Source: a virus
DNA length: 64,000 bases
Reading direction: 5' to 3' (one strand)
IMG/VR virus record: IMGVR_UViG_3300005077_000018
Span: 1,686 to 65,685 of that record
In this document: one piece after another, positions 2,464 through 35,071 of the stretch
How positions within the stretch are numbered: the stretch's first letter is position 1
Layout of the letters: each line of letters starts with the position of its first letter
Position numbers and translations under genes: made by a program
Notes under the pieces: generated by a model
Database searches by the model: none
Told to the model about the DNA's origin: nothing
The model's input: the letters and a program-made list of their open reading frames with translations, nothing else

Positions 2464-3773
2464 GAGCTTTTGCTGATCCAACTCTAGATCCCAGAAATGC
2501 TCCGTATCAGCCCTTCGGGGTTGCGGAAGATTTGCTGTATGACCAGAGCGATCAGATCATTCTGTGCGGTCCATCGGGAACGGGCAAGTCCAGAGCTTGT
2601 TTGGAGAAGCTTCATCTGATCTGCTCCAAATACGCCGGAACCAGAGCTTTGATGGTTAGAAAGACTAGAGCTTCTCTAACTCAGTCAGCTATGGTGACTT
2701 TTGAGAAGATGGTCGTTCCTCAAAATGACTCGGTTTCTTTTAGAACGGGAGAGCAAGAGTACAGATATGTGAACGGTAGCGTCATAGCTGTAGGCGGAAT
2801 GGATAAGGCAATCAAGATCATGTCTACGGAATACGACATAATCTATGTCCAGGAGGCTACCGAGCTAAGTGAAGAGGACTGGGAAACTCTAACAACCAGA
2901 GCCAGATTCGGAAGAGTTCCATACAATCAGGTTATCGGGGACTGCAATCCGTCATTTCCTTTCCATTGGATCAAGCGGAAATCTGACAGAGGAGAGCTCA
3001 AACTCTACAATAGCAGACATGAGGACAATCCTGTTCTATTCAATCAAATTTTGAGGGACTGGACTCCCAAGGGAAGAGCCTATCTAGCTAAATTGGAGAA
3101 GCTGTCGGGTGTACGGTTCAAGAGATTGAGATTGGGAATCTGGGCCGCCGCTGAGGGAATGATCTATACGGAGTACGATTCTAACGTTCATCTACTGGAC
3201 AGATTTCCCATTCCCGCCGAGTGGGATAGATATTGGGTCGTTGACTTCGGTTTCACAAATCCCTTCGTATGGCAAGCCTGGGCGATTGATCCTGAGGGAA
3301 GAGCCTACCGTTTCGCTGAGATCTACCGTACTCAGCTCCTTGTGGAAGATGCCGCCGCTATGATTTCTGCTTGGAGAAGAGAGAACTCTGAGCTTCCTCC
3401 AGCGGCTCTAATTTGCGATCACGACGCAGAGGACAGAGCTACTCTTGAGCGACATCTCAATCTGACTACGGAGCCAGCTATAAAGAATGTCAGCGGCGGT
3501 ATTCAGACGGTCAAGGAGAGACTGAGGATCAGAGAAGACGGGAAAGCCAGAATGTATTTTCTGAGAGACTCAGTTTGGGATGTCGATGAGGAATTGGTTG
3601 ATGCTATGAAACCCTACTCTACTGAGCAGGAATTTGATGCGTATGAGTGGGCTGATTCCAGGAAGCGTGACGAACCCAAGAAAGTTGATGATCATGGCAT
3701 GGACTGTACCAGATATCTTTCGGTTCATCTTGATAACTTCGTAGACGCATGGTCTATGGGAATGAGTTCATAG
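2457..3773 (+). CDS. terL: Terminase large subunit (PBSX-like)
   Basis: Walker A GPSGTGKS, Walker B-like YVQEATE, DCNP, nuclease VDFGFTNP and DDHGMDCTRY. Confidence 0.95.
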   Translation: MLRAFADPTLDPRNAPYQPFGVAEDLLYDQSDQIILCGPSGTGKSRACLEKLHLICSKYAGTRALMVRKTRASLTQSAMVTFEKMVVPQNDSVSFRTGEQEYRYVNGSVIAVGGMDKAIKIMSTEYDIIYVQEATELSEEDWETLTTRARFGRVPYNQVIGDCNPSFPFHWIKRKSDRGELKLYNSRHEDNPVLFNQILRDWTPKGRAYLAKLEKLSGVRFKRLRLGIWAAAEGMIYTEYDSNVHLLDRFPIPAEWDRYWVVDFGFTNPFVWQAWAIDPEGRAYRFAEIYRTQLLVEDAAAMISAWRRENSELPPAALICDHDAEDRATLERHLNLTTEPAIKNVSGGIQTVKERLRIREDGKARMYFLRDSVWDVDEELVDAMKPYSTEQEFDAYEWADSRKRDEPKKVDDHGMDCTRYLSVHLDNFVDAWSMGMSS

Positions 3774-22535: not shown

Positions 22536-23993
22536 ATGACTAATTATCTTGCTGGTCAAGCCTCTCTGTGGGTACAACCGGATGGACCCAATACTGAACC
22601 CAAATATCTTGGGTGTCACAGTATCGGGGATATTCCGGAACCGAAAGGCGATTCGACTTTTCTGTACTGTCCCGATCCGGCCCAGGTTGGGAAATTCGTG
22701 GTGAAGAACAGCTACCGTGGAGAGCCTGGGACTATCACTACGACTCTTGAGACCGATCTAAGGTCCACGGCTGACTATCTTGAGGATCTCTCCTCGAAGG
22801 GTTGTACCTTCCCGATCTTCGTTCACAAACTCACTACGGGTCGTCGCGACGTCTTCACCAACTTTGAACGGTCGTTTGTTCTTCGCGGTGTCGACATCAC
22901 CCAGAGCACTCTAAGTAAATTGGCCTCAAGAACACCTTCTGATGAAGGCGAATCTATGCAGTCCTTTGATCTGTCGGTTCTTCAGGTTCTTAGATGCTTC
23001 AATCTTCAGGCTGTCAGAACTTCGATTACGGAAACTGAGGACGTTACCGCCATCGCTGTTCTTGGTCAGGATCGTTGCGAAGGTGGCGGTCTTAGAAGAA
23101 TGGATCCTGAGGACTCTTTATTCGCCGCCACAAAGCATCTTTCCGGAAGCTCGGCCAATGTTGCCAATGTCCTGAATTCAGCTTACGAAGCTTCCTGGGG
23201 AGCCACCGGAGCAAATCCATTCGGTGCTGGATACGATATCAACGGAATAGTCGGATTCCTGATCTCCGCCACTTCGGTCAGAGTGGTTGTTGCCAGAGGA
23301 ACCACCATTGGTGGAACTCCGGCTCAAATCGCGTATTCTGACGACGACGGCGATACTTGGACGACCGTTACCGTTGGGTCGGTCAATGGAGAATTCGTTT
23401 CTGGAGCGCACGCTCTGTTCTCCCTCGACAGATATCACATCTGGCTCGGAACCAATCTCGGTAGAATATACTTCTCGGCTGACGGAGGTCTTACCTGGTC
23501 TCTTCAAGAGAATCAAGCCATATCCAACACAGCGATCAAGGGCATAGATTTCGTAGACGAGCTTACCGGAATGGTGGTTTACACCGGAGGAGAAGTCGGA
23601 CTCTCGGTTGATGGAGAGACCTGGTCCGAGCTGACGGATACCACTTCATCTGCCCTCGTTGACTGTCAGATGATCACCAGATACAATCTCTGGGCAGTCG
23701 GAACTGACGGAATGTTTTATTCCATGGACGGTGGAGTTACCTGGGTCAGCAGATCCTCGGATAACGTCGGAGCTATCGACTTCTTGAACGAAATGTTCGG
23801 TATAGCAGTCGGCGGAGCTGCCAACGGGAATATCTGGATGACCATAGACGGAGGGTATGACTGGCTTCCGCTGACTGCGGTGACCAATTCCGGCCTTACC
23901 GATGTTGTGGTCGTATCAACCAAGTTGGCCTATGTTGTCGGAAATGCCAACGGCGGAACAGGCTTCATTGCCAAACTCGTTCCGGCCTCCTAA
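22536..23993 (+). CDS. Major tail tube protein with C-terminal Asp-box (BNR) beta-propeller
   Basis: Precedes chaperones and TMP; SDDDGDTW, SADGGLTW, SMDGGVTW, TIDGGYDW. Confidence 0.75.
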   Translation: MTNYLAGQASLWVQPDGPNTEPKYLGCHSIGDIPEPKGDSTFLYCPDPAQVGKFVVKNSYRGEPGTITTTLETDLRSTADYLEDLSSKGCTFPIFVHKLTTGRRDVFTNFERSFVLRGVDITQSTLSKLASRTPSDEGESMQSFDLSVLQVLRCFNLQAVRTSITETEDVTAIAVLGQDRCEGGGLRRMDPEDSLFAATKHLSGSSANVANVLNSAYEASWGATGANPFGAGYDINGIVGFLISATSVRVVVARGTTIGGTPAQIAYSDDDGDTWTTVTVGSVNGEFVSGAHALFSLDRYHIWLGTNLGRIYFSADGGLTWSLQENQAISNTAIKGIDFVDELTGMVVYTGGEVGLSVDGETWSELTDTTSSALVDCQMITRYNLWAVGTDGMFYSMDGGVTWVSRSSDNVGAIDFLNEMFGIAVGGAANGNIWMTIDGGYDWLPLTAVTNSGLTDVVVVSTKLAYVVGNANGGTGFIAKLVPAS

Positions 23994-24039
23994 TTCTGAT
24001 CCAAGGGGAGATCTTGAAATCTGCCTTGAAATTTTATTA

Positions 24040-24087
24040 CTCTCGGAAGGAGGGAATGGTAACTCCCCGCCACCTTCCTTCCGAGAG
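24040..24087 (+). terminator. 15-bp hairpin after the tail tube gene
   Basis: CTCTCGGAAGGAGGG / CCTTCCTTCCGAGAG. Confidence 0.55.
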
Positions 24088-24101
24088 TCGGGGAGAACTA
24101 T

Positions 24102-24680
24102 ATGTCAAAAGGATATAAAAATACTCAGCTAGCTCAGCTAGTTGAGGATGTTTCCAGAACAGAAGAAGTTATCTGGACCAATTCTCGAGGAATTACTGTA
24201 AGACTTCTTCCTATTCCTCCGTATTTGGTTCAGTTGGCCTCTTCCTCAATTGAGAGACCTACTCCTCCTACTTATACGGTAAAATTAGAGGGTGGAGGAA
24301 CTGAAACGCATATTCATGATGAGACCTCAATAGCTCAATCCTCAGAAGAGGAGAAGAAGTTATGGGAGGACTACAAGTTAGCTGAGATGCAGGCTGATCA
24401 AGCTGTCTCAGATCTTATTCTGGATATCGTTCTCATGGAAGGAGTCGTTCTTGAGCCAGAGACGCTTGAAGCAAGCAAGAAAAGGCTCCAGTTGTATAGA
24501 GTGAGTCTTCCTGAGGATCCAGAGGAAGCAGAACTATTTATGCGAAGAACATTCCTTATCGGAAATAGAAATGACGCGGAGGCTATAGTTTCAGTTGCTA
24601 TGGCTTTGACTGGAGCTTCTCCGGAAAGGTTGAAAGTTATGCGTAAATCCTTTCCAGATCCAATGGACTCCGAGTCATAA
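24102..24680 (+). CDS. Tail assembly chaperone (G-like)
   Basis: Between tube and TMP; acidic, helical. Confidence 0.75.
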   Translation: MSKGYKNTQLAQLVEDVSRTEEVIWTNSRGITVRLLPIPPYLVQLASSSIERPTPPTYTVKLEGGGTETHIHDETSIAQSSEEEKKLWEDYKLAEMQADQAVSDLILDIVLMEGVVLEPETLEASKKRLQLYRVSLPEDPEEAELFMRRTFLIGNRNDAEAIVSVAMALTGASPERLKVMRKSFPDPMDSES

Positions 24681-24900
24681 CGAAGGGAAAGGAATTCCCA
24701 TTGAGAATCTCAAGATCTCTAAGGGTAGTTGGGAATTTTCTCAGCTGTTTCTTGAGGTGGGAGTAGCTAAGGATTGGAATATGGATCCGATGGAATTCTG
24801 GTCAAAACCTAGAATTGCTCGAGAACTTATGATAGCCTTCTCTATTTCGTCGGGAGAGATGACGACTTTTGAGCGAGATCAGGTTACCAAGGAGACGTAA
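24655..24900 (+). CDS. Frameshift extension of the tail chaperone (GT-like)
   Basis: +1 frame open 24634-24900, encoding QIQWTPSHNEGKG...WNMDPMEFWSKPRIARELMIAF; TAA overlaps the TMP ATG. Confidence 0.7.
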   Translation, partial: QIQWTPSHNEGKGIPIENLKISKGSWEFSQLFLEVGVAKDWNMDPMEFWSKPRIARELMIAFSISSGEMTTFERDQVTKET

Positions 24901-27900
24901 TGGCAACTCCTGCTGAGATAGGTCTAAGAGCCGTTCTCGACATGGCGAATATGGACTCTAACAGCAAGAGATTTCTTGCTGAAGTGGATCAACTGAAAAA
25001 GGAAGTATCCTCATTTGCTTCTAGTTCTTCCAGTTCTCTGCGGAATTCTGGTAAAGAAATGGGGATCTTCGGAGAAGCAGTCCATAGAGTCTCGTCCATC
25101 GTCAACGGAATCATCGTAGCTGATATTTTCCGAGGAATAGCTCGAGAGATTCGAGGAGTTGTTTCTGAAGTTTTTCAGGCTACTTCTGAGTTCCAGAGTC
25201 TTCAAATTCAATTCGAAACTCTAGCGGCTAGAGATTACATGGCTGAATTCGGAGGTAGCATTGACGAAGCTCTCGAAGCCACCTCAGGAACAGCCCAAGA
25301 TCTGTTGATGTGGGTAAGACAGATAGCTGTAACTACGCCGTTCACGGTGGAAAATCTAGGAAATACTCTCGCCATGGGAAAGGCTTACGGATTCACCACA
25401 GAGGAGGCTCAGAAGCTGGTTCTTACCGTAGGCGACTTTACTGCCGGAATGGGTTTGTCCGGTGAGGTCATGGAAAGAATCATCTACAATATGGGTCAGA
25501 TGATGGCCGCTGGAAAGCCAACAGGAAGAGAGCTTAGAGACCTATCCAACAGTTTTGTTCCGGTAATAGAAATAGCCGACAGAATGGCTGAGAAGCTGGG
25601 AGTAACCAGAAATGAAATGCTGGAGATGTTCAGAACCGGCAAAGTTTCTGCTAGAGAGTTTGTAGACGAATTTACCTTATTGGTTGGAGAACAATTCCCT
25701 GGAGCTATGGAGAGAATGAGCAGAACCTTCCAGGGAGTTACTTCCAACATACAAGACTTCATTCAGACTATCCTAGGTTTTGAGCTGCTGGGTCCGATAG
25801 CCTCAGACATAGCCTCCGATCTGAATGATGCTCTTAAGGGTTTGCTAACTCCTGAAGTTTTCTCGGTAGCTGAAGCCGGAGGAGAATCTCTATCCTTTGC
25901 TTATGGTAAAATAGCAGAAGCTGTAAAAGCTGGAATAAGCTCTATATCTGATTTCCGCAAAGCTCTTGGAATAAATGCTCCTACAGTTACCGGATTTGCC
26001 GAATCAATTCTACGAATTGCGGCTAATGCAGTCAATATGGCCGAGGGAGTGTACGCTGGATTCGACTCGCTTTCTGCGGCCATATCTGATGTTCTCGGCT
26101 TCTTCAATACCTCATTCGAGCAGCTTGGTGCTGATATGCAGCTCTGGGGTCAAAACGTAATTTATCAGTTCGCCGCAGGTATCGTTCAAGGAATAGTGTT
26201 TGTAATTCAGGCCATAACTGCTGTTGCCAATACCATAACGAAAATGCTTCAAGCTAATAGCCCTCCGCTTATTCTTCCTGAATTGGAAGAGTGGGGAGCT
26301 AGTGCTATGCTGTCATACATGAATGGTTGGAGAAATGCAGATTTTTCTGCCTTCGAGGATATCGGAGCTCTTCTAGAAAGAGCTATAATGTCATGGAGAG
26401 GAACAACTGACGAACAGGATCTTGTTTCTAGGGTTATAGGATCCACTATTTCCATGAGCTCTGCTGTGGAAGAATTCAAGAATTTCGGAAGAGTTAGTGA
26501 GTCGACTCTATCGAAGATAGCTGATGCCGCCGGATTTGCCAGCGATGAATTCAAGGACTTCATCAATCTTTCCCTCAGTTTCGAGGGTTTTCAGGGTATT
26601 TCGGATGCGGTAGAATCTGCTCTTGACTTCGAAGGAGTTGGCTCAGTCAACGTCTTCGGTCAGGTAGTCGATTCTTTTCAAGATCTGATCTCTATGGCGG
26701 ATTTGTTCGGACGAGACCTTTCTGCTACCGTATCTTCCTATGCCTCCGATTCCATGAGACTGATCGAAATAAATGATTTGGTGAAAAGATCTCAAGAAGA
26801 AATAAATACAGTCACAAAGCAATATGACGAAGTTCTCGCATCTTTGAATGCGGAGCTTCAGCTTCTGATCAATAGGCAAGAAGATACTACTAGAATATAC
26901 GACATAGACAAAGCTCTAACGAGTAAGATTCTTACCTCCAGAGAACGAGAGCGTTTGGAATTAGAAAAGAAGAGAATTCTTCTTGAAAGAGAAATAAAGA
27001 CCACTCAAGCAGAGAAAAATACCACTCTGAGCACCCTCAAATCTAAACTCGAGGGATATCAACAGGAACAAGACGCTATTGAGGCTAGGGTCAATAGAGA
27101 AAAAGATCTTCTAAAGAGCCTATCAGAAGCTCAACTTCAATCAGCCAAAGATCAGTTAGAAGCTGTAAGATCTGTAATTCAAGCTCAAATTGAGCTCAAT
27201 GAATTATACGGTAGAACCATAGAAGTTGGAGTAAAAGCTAAGAAGGGTGGAGCTGGTTCAGCAGAGGAACTCGCCGAGGAAATAGAGTCAGCTATAAGCG
27301 GAGCTATCGGTAGTGGAATAAACACCGAGGATATAGAGCTGGCTTTCGACGAACTGTGGGAAACCATAAAAGCTGAAGTTGACAAGGCTTGGGAAGAATT
27401 CGGGAAAATTTTTGATCCCATCGAGGAACCATTCAACGAGCTGGTCGGCGCTCTTGAGCAACTATTCGGTTCTGGAGAGCTTCAGAAGTCTATAGATGGC
27501 TTCGTAGCAGATGTTCAGACTGCTTTGAAGCCACTTTCTGATTGGTGGGAAACTGACGGAGAGAAACTCGCTACGGCTTTTGGAGAAATATTCGGAACTA
27601 TTTTGGGAAACATAATAGCCGATAATCCGAACACCGGAAAAAGTATGCTTGACGTTATAGCTGAATCGCTAGGATACATAGTTGACTCCATTGTTGAAAA
27701 TGGTCCCGAGCTTACCGATCTTCTCGGAGACGTGAAAGATTTTCTCAATGACGACGCTTTTCCTAAAATTCAAGAAATTCTTCTAAAGATTTCCAAAGAC
27801 GTCATTCCCAAAATCATAGATTTCGTTGTTCAAGCCGGACCGACCGTTCTTGATATTTTGGGTTTCATCGTAAGAAACGTTGACAAGATAGTTTTGTTTC

Positions 27901-29318
27901 TTACAGCTCTAAGATTCTTGTCTATTTTTGCCGTCATTCTTCCGGTAGTTTTGGCTCTTCAGGGTCCTCTTGCTGGAGTAGTTACAGCTCTAACAGGGCT
28001 CGGAGCACCGGCTCTTTTCGCTGTTGGTCTCATGGCTCTTCTCGGCGGAGGAATAATTGCTGTTCAGGATGCTTACGATGCTGGAAAATTCGACGGAATC
28101 CTAAAATTCTTCAACGAGCTTGGACCGAACATAAAAGAAGGAGTATCTAAAGCTTCGGAGGCTGTAACAGAGTGGATAACTACAATTTCGGAGAGTATAA
28201 ATACTTGGATTCAGGAAACTTTTGGAGAGGGAGGAACTTTAGAAACTTCCTTCTCAGAATTCGGAGCAACCGTAACAGAAAAGTTGGGTGAGATAGGAAC
28301 TTCTCTCGCCGAGTGGTACAATTCAGTTTTTGGAGAGCAGGGAACCATAACTCTCGCAAAAGATGCCTTCTTCGACGCTATCATGAAAACCTACGAAGAT
28401 TTCGGAATATGGATTTCGGAGAAAGCTACGGAAATATCTGAAACCCTAGGAACGTGGATAGTAGATACCTTCGGGGAAGAAGGAACAGTTACCACAGGAA
28501 TCAAAAATTTCTGGGAATCTACCAAACTAGGATTCTCTTTATGGGCATTGGACGTTCTAGGTAAATTTCTGGAGCTCAAAGATAGTGTAGTCGCATGGCT
28601 TACGGAAACATTCGGTCCTGAAGGAACTCTAATTACCGGATTCTCCGAATTCATCACTACTACGGTAGAGGATTTCTCTACGTGGATTTCAGACGTATTT
28701 GAGAAATTCAACGAGCTGATGAAGAGTCTAGGAGATTGGGTGGTAGATGTTTTCGGTCCTGAAGGAAGTTTGATCGAAGGAATAAAAGCATTCGGAACAG
28801 AATTCGAAGCCTGGTGGGACAAAGTTTTCGGTCCTGAGGGTCTTCTAGTTTCTTGGTTTTCGGATTTCTTCGAGAACGTAGTTCCCGGTATAGTTGAGGA
28901 TTTTGTTTCTCTGGGTCAAGATCTAGTGAAGGGAGTTATTCACGGAATAACCAAAATGTGGGAATGGGGAGTAGATCAGGTATCTACCTTCTTCAACGAT
29001 CTGATAGAAGCCGCAAGAGGAGCGGTAAGAGCTGAATCTCCGTCAAAAGAATTCGCCGATTTGGGTGTAGATATCGTTCAGGGACTAGTTCTTGGTATTC
29101 AGTCTCTGTCACATGTTCCTCAGGATTTGATAACCGGAATGCTCAAGAGAAGTATATCTGCATCAGTAGCTCTTTCATCTCCGTCTAATTTCGGATCCTC
29201 TACCGTATACAATGACAATAGGGTCAGCGTGAATATGCAAGCTTCTTACGCTGGCTCTCCTTCACCAGTTACCGTTTATCACGATCTTACTGCGGCTCTA
29301 GCTTCTGCGAGGTTATAG
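24900..29318 (+). CDS. Tape measure protein
   Basis: 1472 aa; tape-measure domain (TPFTVENL, GQMMAAGKPTGRELRDL), W/F helical repeats, C-terminal SPSKEF. Confidence 0.95.
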   Translation: MATPAEIGLRAVLDMANMDSNSKRFLAEVDQLKKEVSSFASSSSSSLRNSGKEMGIFGEAVHRVSSIVNGIIVADIFRGIAREIRGVVSEVFQATSEFQSLQIQFETLAARDYMAEFGGSIDEALEATSGTAQDLLMWVRQIAVTTPFTVENLGNTLAMGKAYGFTTEEAQKLVLTVGDFTAGMGLSGEVMERIIYNMGQMMAAGKPTGRELRDLSNSFVPVIEIADRMAEKLGVTRNEMLEMFRTGKVSAREFVDEFTLLVGEQFPGAMERMSRTFQGVTSNIQDFIQTILGFELLGPIASDIASDLNDALKGLLTPEVFSVAEAGGESLSFAYGKIAEAVKAGISSISDFRKALGINAPTVTGFAESILRIAANAVNMAEGVYAGFDSLSAAISDVLGFFNTSFEQLGADMQLWGQNVIYQFAAGIVQGIVFVIQAITAVANTITKMLQANSPPLILPELEEWGASAMLSYMNGWRNADFSAFEDIGALLERAIMSWRGTTDEQDLVSRVIGSTISMSSAVEEFKNFGRVSESTLSKIADAAGFASDEFKDFINLSLSFEGFQGISDAVESALDFEGVGSVNVFGQVVDSFQDLISMADLFGRDLSATVSSYASDSMRLIEINDLVKRSQEEINTVTKQYDEVLASLNAELQLLINRQEDTTRIYDIDKALTSKILTSRERERLELEKKRILLEREIKTTQAEKNTTLSTLKSKLEGYQQEQDAIEARVNREKDLLKSLSEAQLQSAKDQLEAVRSVIQAQIELNELYGRTIEVGVKAKKGGAGSAEELAEEIESAISGAIGSGINTEDIELAFDELWETIKAEVDKAWEEFGKIFDPIEEPFNELVGALEQLFGSGELQKSIDGFVADVQTALKPLSDWWETDGEKLATAFGEIFGTILGNIIADNPNTGKSMLDVIAESLGYIVDSIVENGPELTDLLGDVKDFLNDDAFPKIQEILLKISKDVIPKIIDFVVQAGPTVLDILGFIVRNVDKIVLFLTALRFLSIFAVILPVVLALQGPLAGVVTALTGLGAPALFAVGLMALLGGGIIAVQDAYDAGKFDGILKFFNELGPNIKEGVSKASEAVTEWITTISESINTWIQETFGEGGTLETSFSEFGATVTEKLGEIGTSLAEWYNSVFGEQGTITLAKDAFFDAIMKTYEDFGIWISEKATEISETLGTWIVDTFGEEGTVTTGIKNFWESTKLGFSLWALDVLGKFLELKDSVVAWLTETFGPEGTLITGFSEFITTTVEDFSTWISDVFEKFNELMKSLGDWVVDVFGPEGSLIEGIKAFGTEFEAWWDKVFGPEGLLVSWFSDFFENVVPGIVEDFVSLGQDLVKGVIHGITKMWEWGVDQVSTFFNDLIEAARGAVRAESPSKEFADLGVDIVQGLVLGIQSLSHVPQDLITGMLKRSISASVALSSPSNFGSSTVYNDNRVSVNMQASYAGSPSPVTVYHDLTAALASARL

Positions 29319-32449: not shown

Positions 32450-35071
32450 ATGAGTGAACTAGAAGAATCCATCATAAATTCACTTTCTAGTCTAGCCAAA
32501 AGAGTTAGAACTCTTGAAACTAGATCGACGGGAATATCCTCTGAGACCACTGATTCCGACATATCTCTCGGAGAATTAACTGATGTTAGTTCTACAGTTG
32601 CCGGAGCTTCCGATAGGGATGCTCTTGTATTTGATCAGGGATCCTCAGAGTGGATTCCGGAGGAAATTCCTCGATCTCTAGAAGAGCTGTCAGATGTGAG
32701 TATTTCCTCACCCCCGTCAGACGGAAATCTTCTTGAATTTGATTCGTCTTCAGGTAGATGGATTCCAGGAGACGGATTGTCCACAATCGGTCCCTTTGCC
32801 CCGGATCCTCACGATCTGGATGGAGATCATCATACAGGAACAATCTCTGACGATCAAGGTCCTCAGTTCTTCCTCTTGGACGGCACTAGAACGATAACAG
32901 GAAACATTGATCTTTCAGAATTGTCTACCGTTGATGGAGTAGATCTAAGTGAGTTCAAGAGTGACTTCGACTCCCATAATCATGATCTCTATCATCTAAG
33001 ATTAGGAACTCCTGACGTAATAACAGCTGTTCATTCGTTTGAGCCAGCTTCTACGTCTGCTCCATTTTCTCTTGGAACGAATGCTCAGGGTCAGTTAGTT
33101 GCGGGATTTCAGGCGGATCAGCTCAACAAGTCCGTAATTGCCGGAGATGGACTTCTTACCGGAGGACTTCTTACCGCTGACGTTACTTTGGAAATAAATG
33201 AGGCGTTCGAGTTTGTATGGTCAGCGTCTCATGAGTTTCAGAGTAGCATAAATCTTAGTGACGCAATTCCTAGACAATCCTATCAGTTTGACTTAGGATC
33301 TGCCGATAAATTGTGGGGAGTTCTTCACGTAGCGGAATTGGATACCTTCCTGATCAAAGCGGACGCTATATCTGTCATGGGAGGAAAACAGATTGTGGCT
33401 AAAGCGGAAGGACTTCTTCCTCTTGATGTAGATGCGGTTCAAACTGATATAGATTTTTCAGGAATTCTATCCGTTGGAGACTTCATTCTTTTGAAGACTC
33501 TTCTTCAGGTTGAATTCATGCAGATTACTGCTTTCATATCCGGAACTACATATACAGTTACCAGAAATGTAGATGGAACCGGAGCGAATTCCTGGCCCGC
33601 TGGATCCGTTTGGGTTGATCTGGGATCCTTTCAAGACGGAAGAATAGAGCTAGAAGCTGTATCTACCCCAAGAATTTCTATTGTGCTTCAAGGAGCTACT
33701 TTTGATGAAGTGGATTCTGAACCTCTAAGAATAGGAGATCTTGAAGGATGGGACGATGTAGTAGGAACTCGATACGGAGTAGGTATAGGAGACTTTTCGG
33801 GAGAGAATTATTTCAAATACGATCCGGTAGAAGGATTTTCCCTTCGATCAGGAGACGGAAAACTACAAATAGATCCAAATGGATTTAGTTTTCTTCTTCA
33901 ACCGGCTCTTGATTCGTCTACAGCTATAAAGTGGACTACTTCCTATGGAACTTCCAGTTTATCTAGTTTGACTACTTACTCAGGTACAGGTGGATTCTAT
34001 GCCTCGGAATGGGTTTTGAATACTCCAGAGCCTTCCTTGATACGAATGAGGTCAGATCATGACTTTGGATCTCAACCGTCGGCTAGTATTCAACTTCTTG
34101 CAGGATGGGATTTGGATGGAATTTCAGATTTAGCCAGAAAATCTCAAGTTATCCTAACTGCTCAAGGAGATACCGCCGAAAGATCGTCAGTTGGACTTTC
34201 TGCGGACGATATACTCATAACCAAACATGAAGATGGAGCTAATGCGTCTTCTCCTATAATATCTATTGAGGAAACTTCTTCTAATCCTTCCGATCCATCT
34301 TCTACGAAAATAAAGCTCTACTCCAGATACGGAATTCCCACCATACGAAGATCCAACGGAGCTATGCACTCTCTGATATATGCCGATAAATTTCTTGAGG
34401 CAATTCCTGGAGGAACGGTATGGGCTGGGAGTTCCATGGTAGCTGGATCATTTCTGATAGCTGACAGATCTGGAGGAGGAAATCATCTTACGAGATCCGG
34501 AGCAGGAGTTTCTGTAGCTCCTAACGCTGGAACTGTAGGAAAGACTGTTCTCCCTTCTGTTTCGTTTAATGGATCAACCTATGCCTATAGAACCAATGCC
34601 AATCAGCTTCAGCCAAATAACGGTAATTATCAATGTCTCGGAGGATGGTATTATTTAGACGCAGTAAATAGATATCATTCCTTGATGCAATTCGGAGTGG
34701 CTACTCCGAATATTTCTCTGTACATAAATAATGCTAACGGAATAGAATTTCGTTTCTGGAATACAATAGGAACATTTTATACTCATGGAGTGGGTGTTGG
34801 AGTTACTACCGGATGGCATTTTTTCTTGGCCTATCTTTATTGGAATAGTTCGGTTAGTCAGCAAATGGGTCTAATGTATGACGGAACCTGGTGGTATTAC
34901 ACTCCAACTTCCACTTCTACAATTAGAGCTCCCGGAGGAGATTTTAGACTAGGTCATGACGGAAGTAATTTTCTTCTGGGAAAATTCTCTGTTGCTTTTA
35001 CCGGAGACTATTCTGGATGCATAGAGTTGGGAACCGAATATTACAATATGACGAGGAATCTGTTCAAATGA
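32450..35071 (+). CDS. Tail fibre / receptor-binding protein with C-terminal LamG/ConA-like domain
   Basis: LxELSDV repeats; C-terminal LGGWYYLD...GWHFF...DFRLG. Confidence 0.7.
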   Translation: MSELEESIINSLSSLAKRVRTLETRSTGISSETTDSDISLGELTDVSSTVAGASDRDALVFDQGSSEWIPEEIPRSLEELSDVSISSPPSDGNLLEFDSSSGRWIPGDGLSTIGPFAPDPHDLDGDHHTGTISDDQGPQFFLLDGTRTITGNIDLSELSTVDGVDLSEFKSDFDSHNHDLYHLRLGTPDVITAVHSFEPASTSAPFSLGTNAQGQLVAGFQADQLNKSVIAGDGLLTGGLLTADVTLEINEAFEFVWSASHEFQSSINLSDAIPRQSYQFDLGSADKLWGVLHVAELDTFLIKADAISVMGGKQIVAKAEGLLPLDVDAVQTDIDFSGILSVGDFILLKTLLQVEFMQITAFISGTTYTVTRNVDGTGANSWPAGSVWVDLGSFQDGRIELEAVSTPRISIVLQGATFDEVDSEPLRIGDLEGWDDVVGTRYGVGIGDFSGENYFKYDPVEGFSLRSGDGKLQIDPNGFSFLLQPALDSSTAIKWTTSYGTSSLSSLTTYSGTGGFYASEWVLNTPEPSLIRMRSDHDFGSQPSASIQLLAGWDLDGISDLARKSQVILTAQGDTAERSSVGLSADDILITKHEDGANASSPIISIEETSSNPSDPSSTKIKLYSRYGIPTIRRSNGAMHSLIYADKFLEAIPGGTVWAGSSMVAGSFLIADRSGGGNHLTRSGAGVSVAPNAGTVGKTVLPSVSFNGSTYAYRTNANQLQPNNGNYQCLGGWYYLDAVNRYHSLMQFGVATPNISLYINNANGIEFRFWNTIGTFYTHGVGVGVTTGWHFFLAYLYWNSSVSQQMGLMYDGTWWYYTPTSTSTIRAPGGDFRLGHDGSNFLLGKFSVAFTGDYSGCIELGTEYYNMTRNLFK

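Follow-up and report, generated by a model that had tools for sequence, protein, structure and literature searches.

The stretch between positions 24102 and 24900 is very probably one recoded gene, from which a short and a long protein are made by means of a forward slip of few ribosomes. The window, meaning the whole analysed stretch of 64,000 nucleotides, covers bases 1686-65685 of a 70,023-base IMG/VR virus record. Judged from sequence comparison, a +1 slip at UUU_C is likely, and it would yield a low-level fusion of the upstream protein (G) with an extension encoded in the +1 frame (T). We infer the slippage itself, its direction (+1 as opposed to -2), its efficiency and the roles of G and T. 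The gene can be annotated as one recoded gene with two predicted products, neither part of which had been annotated before in the databases for this phage lineage.

Reading frames and coding signal of the locus

The features of the locus are listed in Table 1. In the +1 frame, a stop at 24631-24633 is followed by 88 open codons that run from 24634 to the TAA at 24898-24900. It is the sole frame that is open as far as the ATG of the tape measure gene, and its TAA overlaps with this ATG, the last A being shared at 24900 (TAATG). The -1 frame contains stops at 24644 and 24764, so that no more than about 38 codons could be gained by a -1 shift. The coordinates of the initial annotation (frame 0, the +1 open frame 24634-24900 and the overlap with the tape measure gene) were all correct. 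It had also placed TCC TTT CCA at 24648-24656 in frame 0 and inside 24634-24680, as was found here, and had let the -1 frame close after about 38 codons, which agrees with the stop at 24764.

Table 1. Features of the locus in the window and corresponding features in four related phages (L002 to L005).
Feature	Genome	Position	Strand	Details
ORF with BNR/Asp-box repeats, 5' of G	window	22536..23993	+	485 aa
Hairpin	window	24039-24088		loop ~24061-24068; SD GGGGAG 24090-24095 (region 24039-24095)
Putative G-like tail assembly chaperone ORF	window	24102..24680	+	frame 0; 192 aa; stop TAA 24678-24680
Overlap permitting entry into the +1 frame	window	24634..24680	+	47 nt; from the +1-frame stop 24631-24633 to the frame-0 stop
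Proposed shift site TCC_TTT_CCA	window	24648..24656	+	frame 0; UUU 24651-24653, UUC 24652-24654, then CAG 24655-24657
Putative T-like extension	window	24655..24900	+	+1 frame; 81 codons plus TAA 24898-24900
First canonical +1-frame starts	window	24757..24783	+	GTG 24757, ATG 24781; candidate internal initiation sites
Tape measure protein gene	window	24900..29318	+	1472 aa; PF20155 TMP_3, E 1.2e-22; phrog_58 and other tape-measure PHROGs
Hairpin region	L002	2382-2480
Hairpin region	L003	2371-2470
Hairpin region	L004	1888-1975
Hairpin region	L005	1881-1962
Site codons	window			AAA TCC TTT CCA
Homologous codons	L002			AAA TCC TTT CAG
Homologous codons	L003			AAC TCC TTT CAG
Homologous codons	L004			GCC CTC TTT CGC
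Homologous codons	L005			GCA TCC TTT CAG

The coding signal was scored with a codon-usage model trained on 31 long ORFs in the window. Per codon, the +1 frame scores +0.23 overall, with +0.30 between 24682 and 24780 and +0.29 between 24781 and 24897. As references, in-frame gene windows have a median of 0.36, and the 95th percentile of off-frame windows is -0.17. The score of the -1 frame is -0.19 to -0.27, and that of frame 0 past its stop is -0.72. No ATG, GTG or TTG occurs in the +1 frame before the GTG at 24757 (codon 42), which is followed by the ATG at 24781, so that 41 coding-like codons precede any canonical start. A -1 shift was rejected, as the -1 frame is short and non-coding by its codon score.

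The length of the open +1 frame was compared with that found after the other in-frame TTT_C sites of the window, of which 101 are present in 33 long ORFs. With 81 codons after the slip it is the longest of all, the median being 11 codons and the 95th percentile 38, and the site at 24651 is the sole one of the 101 whose +1 open frame outlasts its own ORF. The open +1 frame is beyond chance.

In the same 33 long ORFs (2457-56478), the 101 in-frame TTT_C sites stand against 47 expected from codon and first-base frequencies. With TTT_C this common in the genome, the motif cannot by itself act as a strong signal. A side observation in the same ORFs is that TTC followed by C is depleted (48 versus 71 expected). 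Within the long ORFs, TCC_TTT_C occurs in frame just once more, at 33626-33632 (ORF 32450-35071), where the +1 frame is stopped after 4 codons.

Conservation of the site in related phages

Four IMG/VR contigs of related phages (L002, L003, L004 and L005) were read as DNA. The identity of their G proteins to that of the window is 28% (L002), 41% (L003) and 25% (L004), and L004 has a G+C content of 54% versus 44% in the window. All four share the layout in which G is followed by a +1-frame extension that ends at or just before the start of the tape measure gene. At the homologous codon, TTT_C is present in frame in each of the five genomes (Table 1). It is the only in-frame homopolymer codon common to the five overlaps, and the overlap of L003 contains no other. 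Conservation of TCCTTTC in relatives had been proposed as a check, and this is borne out in part: TTT_C is kept in five of five, but TCC_TTT_C in four of five genomes, since L004 reads CTC_TTT_C.

Around the Phe codon, the conserved reading frame changes. Over the 12 codons upstream, the mean BLOSUM62 score per site amounts to 1.11 for the G frame versus 0.42 for the T frame, and within this stretch the T frame contains stops in four of the five genomes. Over the 7 codons downstream, the T frame scores higher, with 2.93 versus 1.14 for the G frame. It is precisely at the Phe codon that protein conservation leaves the G frame and continues in the +1 frame.

The basis for TTT_C is the DNA of five genomes plus protein-level inference from further homologues. 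Six homologues of G (122-209 aa, 36-56% identity) were found by a word-indexed search of 5.8 billion proteins and were combined with G from three of the related phages to a set of nine sequences. Their C-termini line up on ..S-F-P/Q-D.., and Phe184 is one of 10 invariant columns among the nine. It is followed by P, P, P, Q, P, H, Q, Q and R, and although this residue varies, its codon begins with C in every case. The nine proteins terminate within a few codons of one another, one of them (P0003) having its stop two codons past the Phe. In the T frame, the Phe is likewise present in nine of nine database proteins that reach the column of the window's +1-frame Phe. A Phe in both frames, one base apart, means that the DNA reads TTTY, and owing to the C-first codons in G this TTTY is TTTC. 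In the AlphaFold model of G (pLDDT 79, confident for residues 21-170), the tail is predicted to be disordered, with pLDDT <50 at residues 185-192 and a mean of 45 for the block 181-190. An invariant Phe184 in such a low-pLDDT tail points to a constraint on the nucleotides or the RNA rather than on the fold.

Further relatives were sought at the level of the locus. A tblastn search with G and the extension against 50,697 phage records gave no relatives, locus searches with G, the extension, alignment A1 or P0003 in viral, metagenome and genome contigs returned nothing, and neither did a search of viral contigs with alignment A7.

The window derives from a metagenome assembly, and the frame break could in principle be an assembly or sequencing indel or the mark of a decayed gene, the real gene being an in-frame G-T fusion or the extension being dead. 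This is extremely improbable, as the same +1 break occurs at the same codon in four independent assemblies (five of five together with the window) and the end of G is conserved in nine homologues. In addition, an in-frame fusion is absent from the protein searches, in which no longer G-T protein was found with G (105-336 aa) or with T (all lengths). Against decay, the extension retains its coding signature and a conserved sequence.

The same +1 frame might also be reached from within 24634-24680 by another route, namely a -2 shift, a +1 slip of tRNA-Lys at AAA_G or transcriptional slippage. A -2 and a +1 shift lead to the identical frame, and AAA_G (24633-24636) is the first codon whose +1 slip still enters the open frame; the overlap of L005 also has an in-frame AAA_G. 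However, AAA_G is missing from L002, L003 and L004, and a run of at least five identical bases, as would permit -2 re-pairing or slippage of the polymerase, occurs in none of the five overlaps. The conservation of the T frame begins right after the Phe codon and not earlier, its upstream part is interrupted by stops (within 12 codons in four of five genomes), and the early stop of P0003 leaves little room downstream. Another route is on these grounds highly unlikely. The +1 shift at TTT_C, as put forward in the initial annotation, is supported by its conservation in five of five genomes, by the switch of the conserved frame and by the conserved extension residues encoded upstream of the starts.

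The G protein and its extension

G has no match in Pfam or PHROGs, and Foldseek searches with its model against PDB and BFVD gave nothing at E<=0.001. Among the weak BFVD rows, the best is a protein of Bacillus phage Staley (probability 0.97, E 0.02), and one named 'tail assembly chaperone' is found with a probability of 0.72. In a VIA-align comparison of the G model with 48,161 PDB chains, YqbN (3klu) ranked first with Z 6.1, an rmsd of 4.1 and 95 aligned residues, followed by an uncharacterised protein (3fgx, Z 4.9) and the HK97 tail assembly chaperone (2ob9, Z 4.7), all Z being below 8. YqbN is the protein at the tail-chaperone position of the Bacillus skin prophage. With modest Z values of 4.7-6.1, the model is suggestive of a tail-chaperone fold. 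G is assigned as a tail assembly chaperone mainly because of its position before the tape measure gene.

For the extension, a HMMER search with the 88-aa frame against 1.84 billion representatives identified 35 homologues with E<=1e-3, and for eight of these E was <=1e-10. They are 58-105 aa long with one exception, the repetitive 620-aa protein P0034. In this protein, six separate stretches match extension residues 9-45 (E 3.4e-5), which may mean that it consists of repeats of the N-terminal T-domain motif or may be no more than low-complexity noise. The conserved core in the alignment A2 comprises G-x-W-E-Y/F-S, A-x-E-W-G, P-x-E-F-W and M-I-A, with G31, W33, A45, W48, P52, F55 and M66 being near-invariant. 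The extension has no Pfam, PHROG or Foldseek (PDB) match and no structural match above threshold. Two of the 35 family members match PF09550 (Phage_TAC_6) weakly (best E 0.0072) and the extension of the window does not, which is a hint of a distant kinship at the sequence level.

Among the extension homologues, the annotated N-termini spread across some 36 columns of the alignment, a pattern expected where a frame has no true start and gene callers settle for the first one at hand. The extension is a conserved T domain without a conserved start. Its AlphaFold model (pLDDT 85) has a core from about residue 31 of 88 and a helix at 37-47, so that starts at codon 42 or 50 would give a truncated core. 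The GTG at 24757 and the ATG at 24781 both lie 3' of the conserved W-x-P-x-H and G-S-W-E-F-S motifs, and neither position is conserved in L002-L005.

These starts bear on the explanation that the extension is a separate small protein that is made from its own start and without a frameshift. The candidates are the GTG at 24757, the ATG at 24781 (39 aa) and the non-canonical ATC at 24658 or ATT at 24694/24700. The ATG has a well-spaced AAGGA (24769-24773) 7 nt upstream, which arises, however, from conserved Lys-Asp/Glu codons. Many database homologues are annotated as free-standing ORFs of 58-105 aa, but their start positions are scattered and unconserved. About ten of them have an initial Met 1-2 residues before the conserved Trp, and some have it upstream of the Phe; the Met at F+2 occupies a column that is otherwise Ile or Val.

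Among the five genomes, L004 and L005 have canonical T-frame starts (ATG or GTG/TTG) 5' of the Phe codon, while there is none before codon 42 in the window, 49 in L002 and 26 in L003. In these three, the available starts would lose the conserved W-N-P-x-H motif, and in the window and L002 they would also lose G31 and W33 and, according to the model, cut the helix 37-47. Moreover, the coding score is already positive upstream of the candidate starts. Translation of the extension from its own start in place of a frameshift is therefore regarded as highly unlikely, and in some lineages T may be initiated independently. The initial annotation had named a start near the ATG at 24781 as evidence against a shift. 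AAGGA is indeed present there, but this start is unconserved in the relatives and the near-invariant core would be lost, which speaks against it.

Proposed slip, known frameshift systems and flanking RNA

In the proposed +1 slip, most ribosomes would end at the TAA at 24678 and produce the 192-aa G protein of a long-tailed phage. In a small fraction, translation would pause while the P-site tRNA-Phe is on UUU 24651-24653, and this tRNA would move one base forward from UUU to UUC, with which its GAA anticodon pairs better. Decoding would resume at CAG 24655 in the +1 frame and run through to the TAA at 24898. The long product would be a 265-aa G-T fusion (184 + 81) with the junction ..RKSF-QIQWTPSH..., for which the predicted tryptic junction peptide of a +1 slip on UUU_C is SFQIQWTPSHNEGK. 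The junction given in the initial annotation, ..KSF/QIQWTPSHNEGK, was right. If lambda gpG/gpGT is a guide, coating of the tape measure protein would fall to the abundant G part, and the less frequent T part would bring in the tail tube protein; a low slip rate would then fix the G:GT ratio.

No stimulatory RNA structure was found in the 80 nt after the site, where folding is no better than in shuffled sequences, the z values of four genomes being 0.04, 0.47, 2.23 and 0.92. A conserved slow A-site codon is also missing, this codon being CCA in the window, CAG in L002, L003 and L005 and CGC in L004. In the window phage's own codon usage, from which that of the host may differ, CCA accounts for 7.4 and CAG for 19.0 per 1000. 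Since there is no conserved stimulator and TTT_C is common, the slip rate is probably low. By analogy with lambda (PMC5009743), such a rate would suit a pair of chaperones that is made in unequal amounts.

The frameshift between lambda gpG and gpGT is described as conserved among the tail assembly chaperones of long-tailed phages (Levin et al. 1993; Xu, Hendrix and Duda 2004; as cited in PMC5009743). Like there, the overlapping frames are located directly before the tape measure gene, here and in L002-L005, the second frame has no conserved start, a short and a C-terminally extended product are predicted, and a conserved shift site lies inside the overlap. In contrast to lambda, the direction is +1 and not -1, and 24634-24680 contains no X_XXY_YYZ heptamer, although the family as described admits other shift types. 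Also unlike the lambda chaperones, G and the extension have no sequence similarity to the chaperone families of Pfam and PHROGs.

In influenza A virus, PA-X is made by a +1 shift at UCC_UUU_CGU, in which the favoured event is a move from UUU to UUC with its better anticodon pairing (Firth et al. 2012, PMC3498833). The same motif is also listed for amalgaviruses, ASXL and PLEKHM2. The likeness to PA-X proposed in the initial annotation applies to UCC_UUU_C, the seven bases of which are identical in four of the five genomes, and does not extend to the rare CGN codon in the A site, which acts as a stimulator in PA-X. A slip of tRNA-Phe in the P site is proposed in both cases, and a low efficiency would suit the biology. 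Unlike PA-X, the site here is read by a bacterial and not a eukaryotic ribosome, and its A-site codon is CCA, CAG or CGC instead of a conserved rare CGN. Furthermore, UCC here also codes for a conserved Ser in G and a Pro in the T frame, which makes a role in the E site inseparable from protein constraint.

[quoted passage not shown] The site in the window shares with these the tetranucleotide, the bacterial translation and the dispensability of a neighbouring stop. In contrast to YopN-TyeA, it is conserved and would serve the production of a phage structural-assembly protein.

Forward shifts in phage tail genes are already known. The PRFect training set, drawn from SEA-PHAGES annotations of actinobacteriophages, includes 350 forward versus 2368 backward cases, nearly all of them in tail chaperones (PMC10885494), and in the archaeal virus HSTV-2 a tail chaperone shift was inferred that is probably +1 (PMC5009743). 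The gene class, the direction and the genomic position are the same here. Unlike the actinobacteriophage cases, a different protein family is concerned, in an uncultured phage with 44% G+C. Forward shifting in a tail gene as such is therefore on record. Phage Mu, as cited in PMC3498833, makes gpGT by a programmed -2 frameshift of ~2.2%, which involves the same relative frame and the same gene class; here, a sequence that would allow re-pairing two bases back is present in none of the five overlaps.

The G/GT trick proposed here is very probably real and of the textbook kind, in the less common direction, and it is not new in kind. No new mechanism is opened, as forward shifts in chaperones and bacterial +1 slippage on UUU_Y have both been described. 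What it adds is a comparatively supported case of a UCC_UUU_C forward shift in a bacterial virus, with the same seven bases as PA-X. No report of a UCC_UUU_C site in a tail chaperone was found in the literature searched, which is not proof of absence.

Two further elements were observed in the five genomes. The first one is an SD-like purine block at -30 to -22 from the shift codon, which reads GGAAAGG in the window (24623-24629) and AGGAGG, GGGAGG, GGGGAGG and AGGAG in the relatives, while the encoded residues differ. A strict SD 4-mer is contained in four of the five blocks, compared to 6-11% of 9-nt windows in these loci. The end of the block lies 21-23 nt from UUU, except in L005, where the distance is about 25 nt. 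SD sequences are known to affect +1 shifts at a spacing of 3 nt and -1 shifts at about 10 nt, so that 21-25 nt is too long for the known effects.

The second one is a long, near-perfect hairpin between the upstream gene of about 490 aa and the start of the chaperone gene, which is found in five of five genomes (z -2.1 to -5.8). Its stem sequences vary among the genomes. Its C-rich loop, CUCCCC or in L004 GCCCCC, can pair with the ribosome-binding site that directly follows the hairpin, GGGGAG or in L004 GGGGGC, and as both are changed in L004, the two sides co-vary. In the window, L002 and L003, the duplex between loop and SD has an energy of -11.7 to -12.4 kcal/mol, which is matched by 3-23 of 500 shuffled loops. 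On sequence grounds, loop and SD may form a pseudoknot that gates the translation of the chaperone. It is conceivable, if rather unlikely, that UCC_UUU_C is a minimal +1 cassette for bacterial as well as eukaryotic ribosomes, to which UCC in the E site contributes and which, in this phage lineage, is tuned by the purine block and the hairpin. If so, RNA would jointly control the G:GT ratio and how much chaperone is made.

In L003, the chaperone gene ends with TCC_TGA_G (3021-3027), corresponding to the shift codon plus stop of the antizyme +1 site. This was seen in one of five genomes, and the likeness is probably due to chance.

Finally, a stop-to-stop frame of 489-499 codons precedes G in all four relatives. 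In the window, the 485-aa protein encoded at this place contains a BNR/Asp-box region similar to PF14870 (E 7e-9, residues 257-329). By its position, this protein is probably the major tail protein, and it is probably a tail tube protein with a propeller-like decoration domain.
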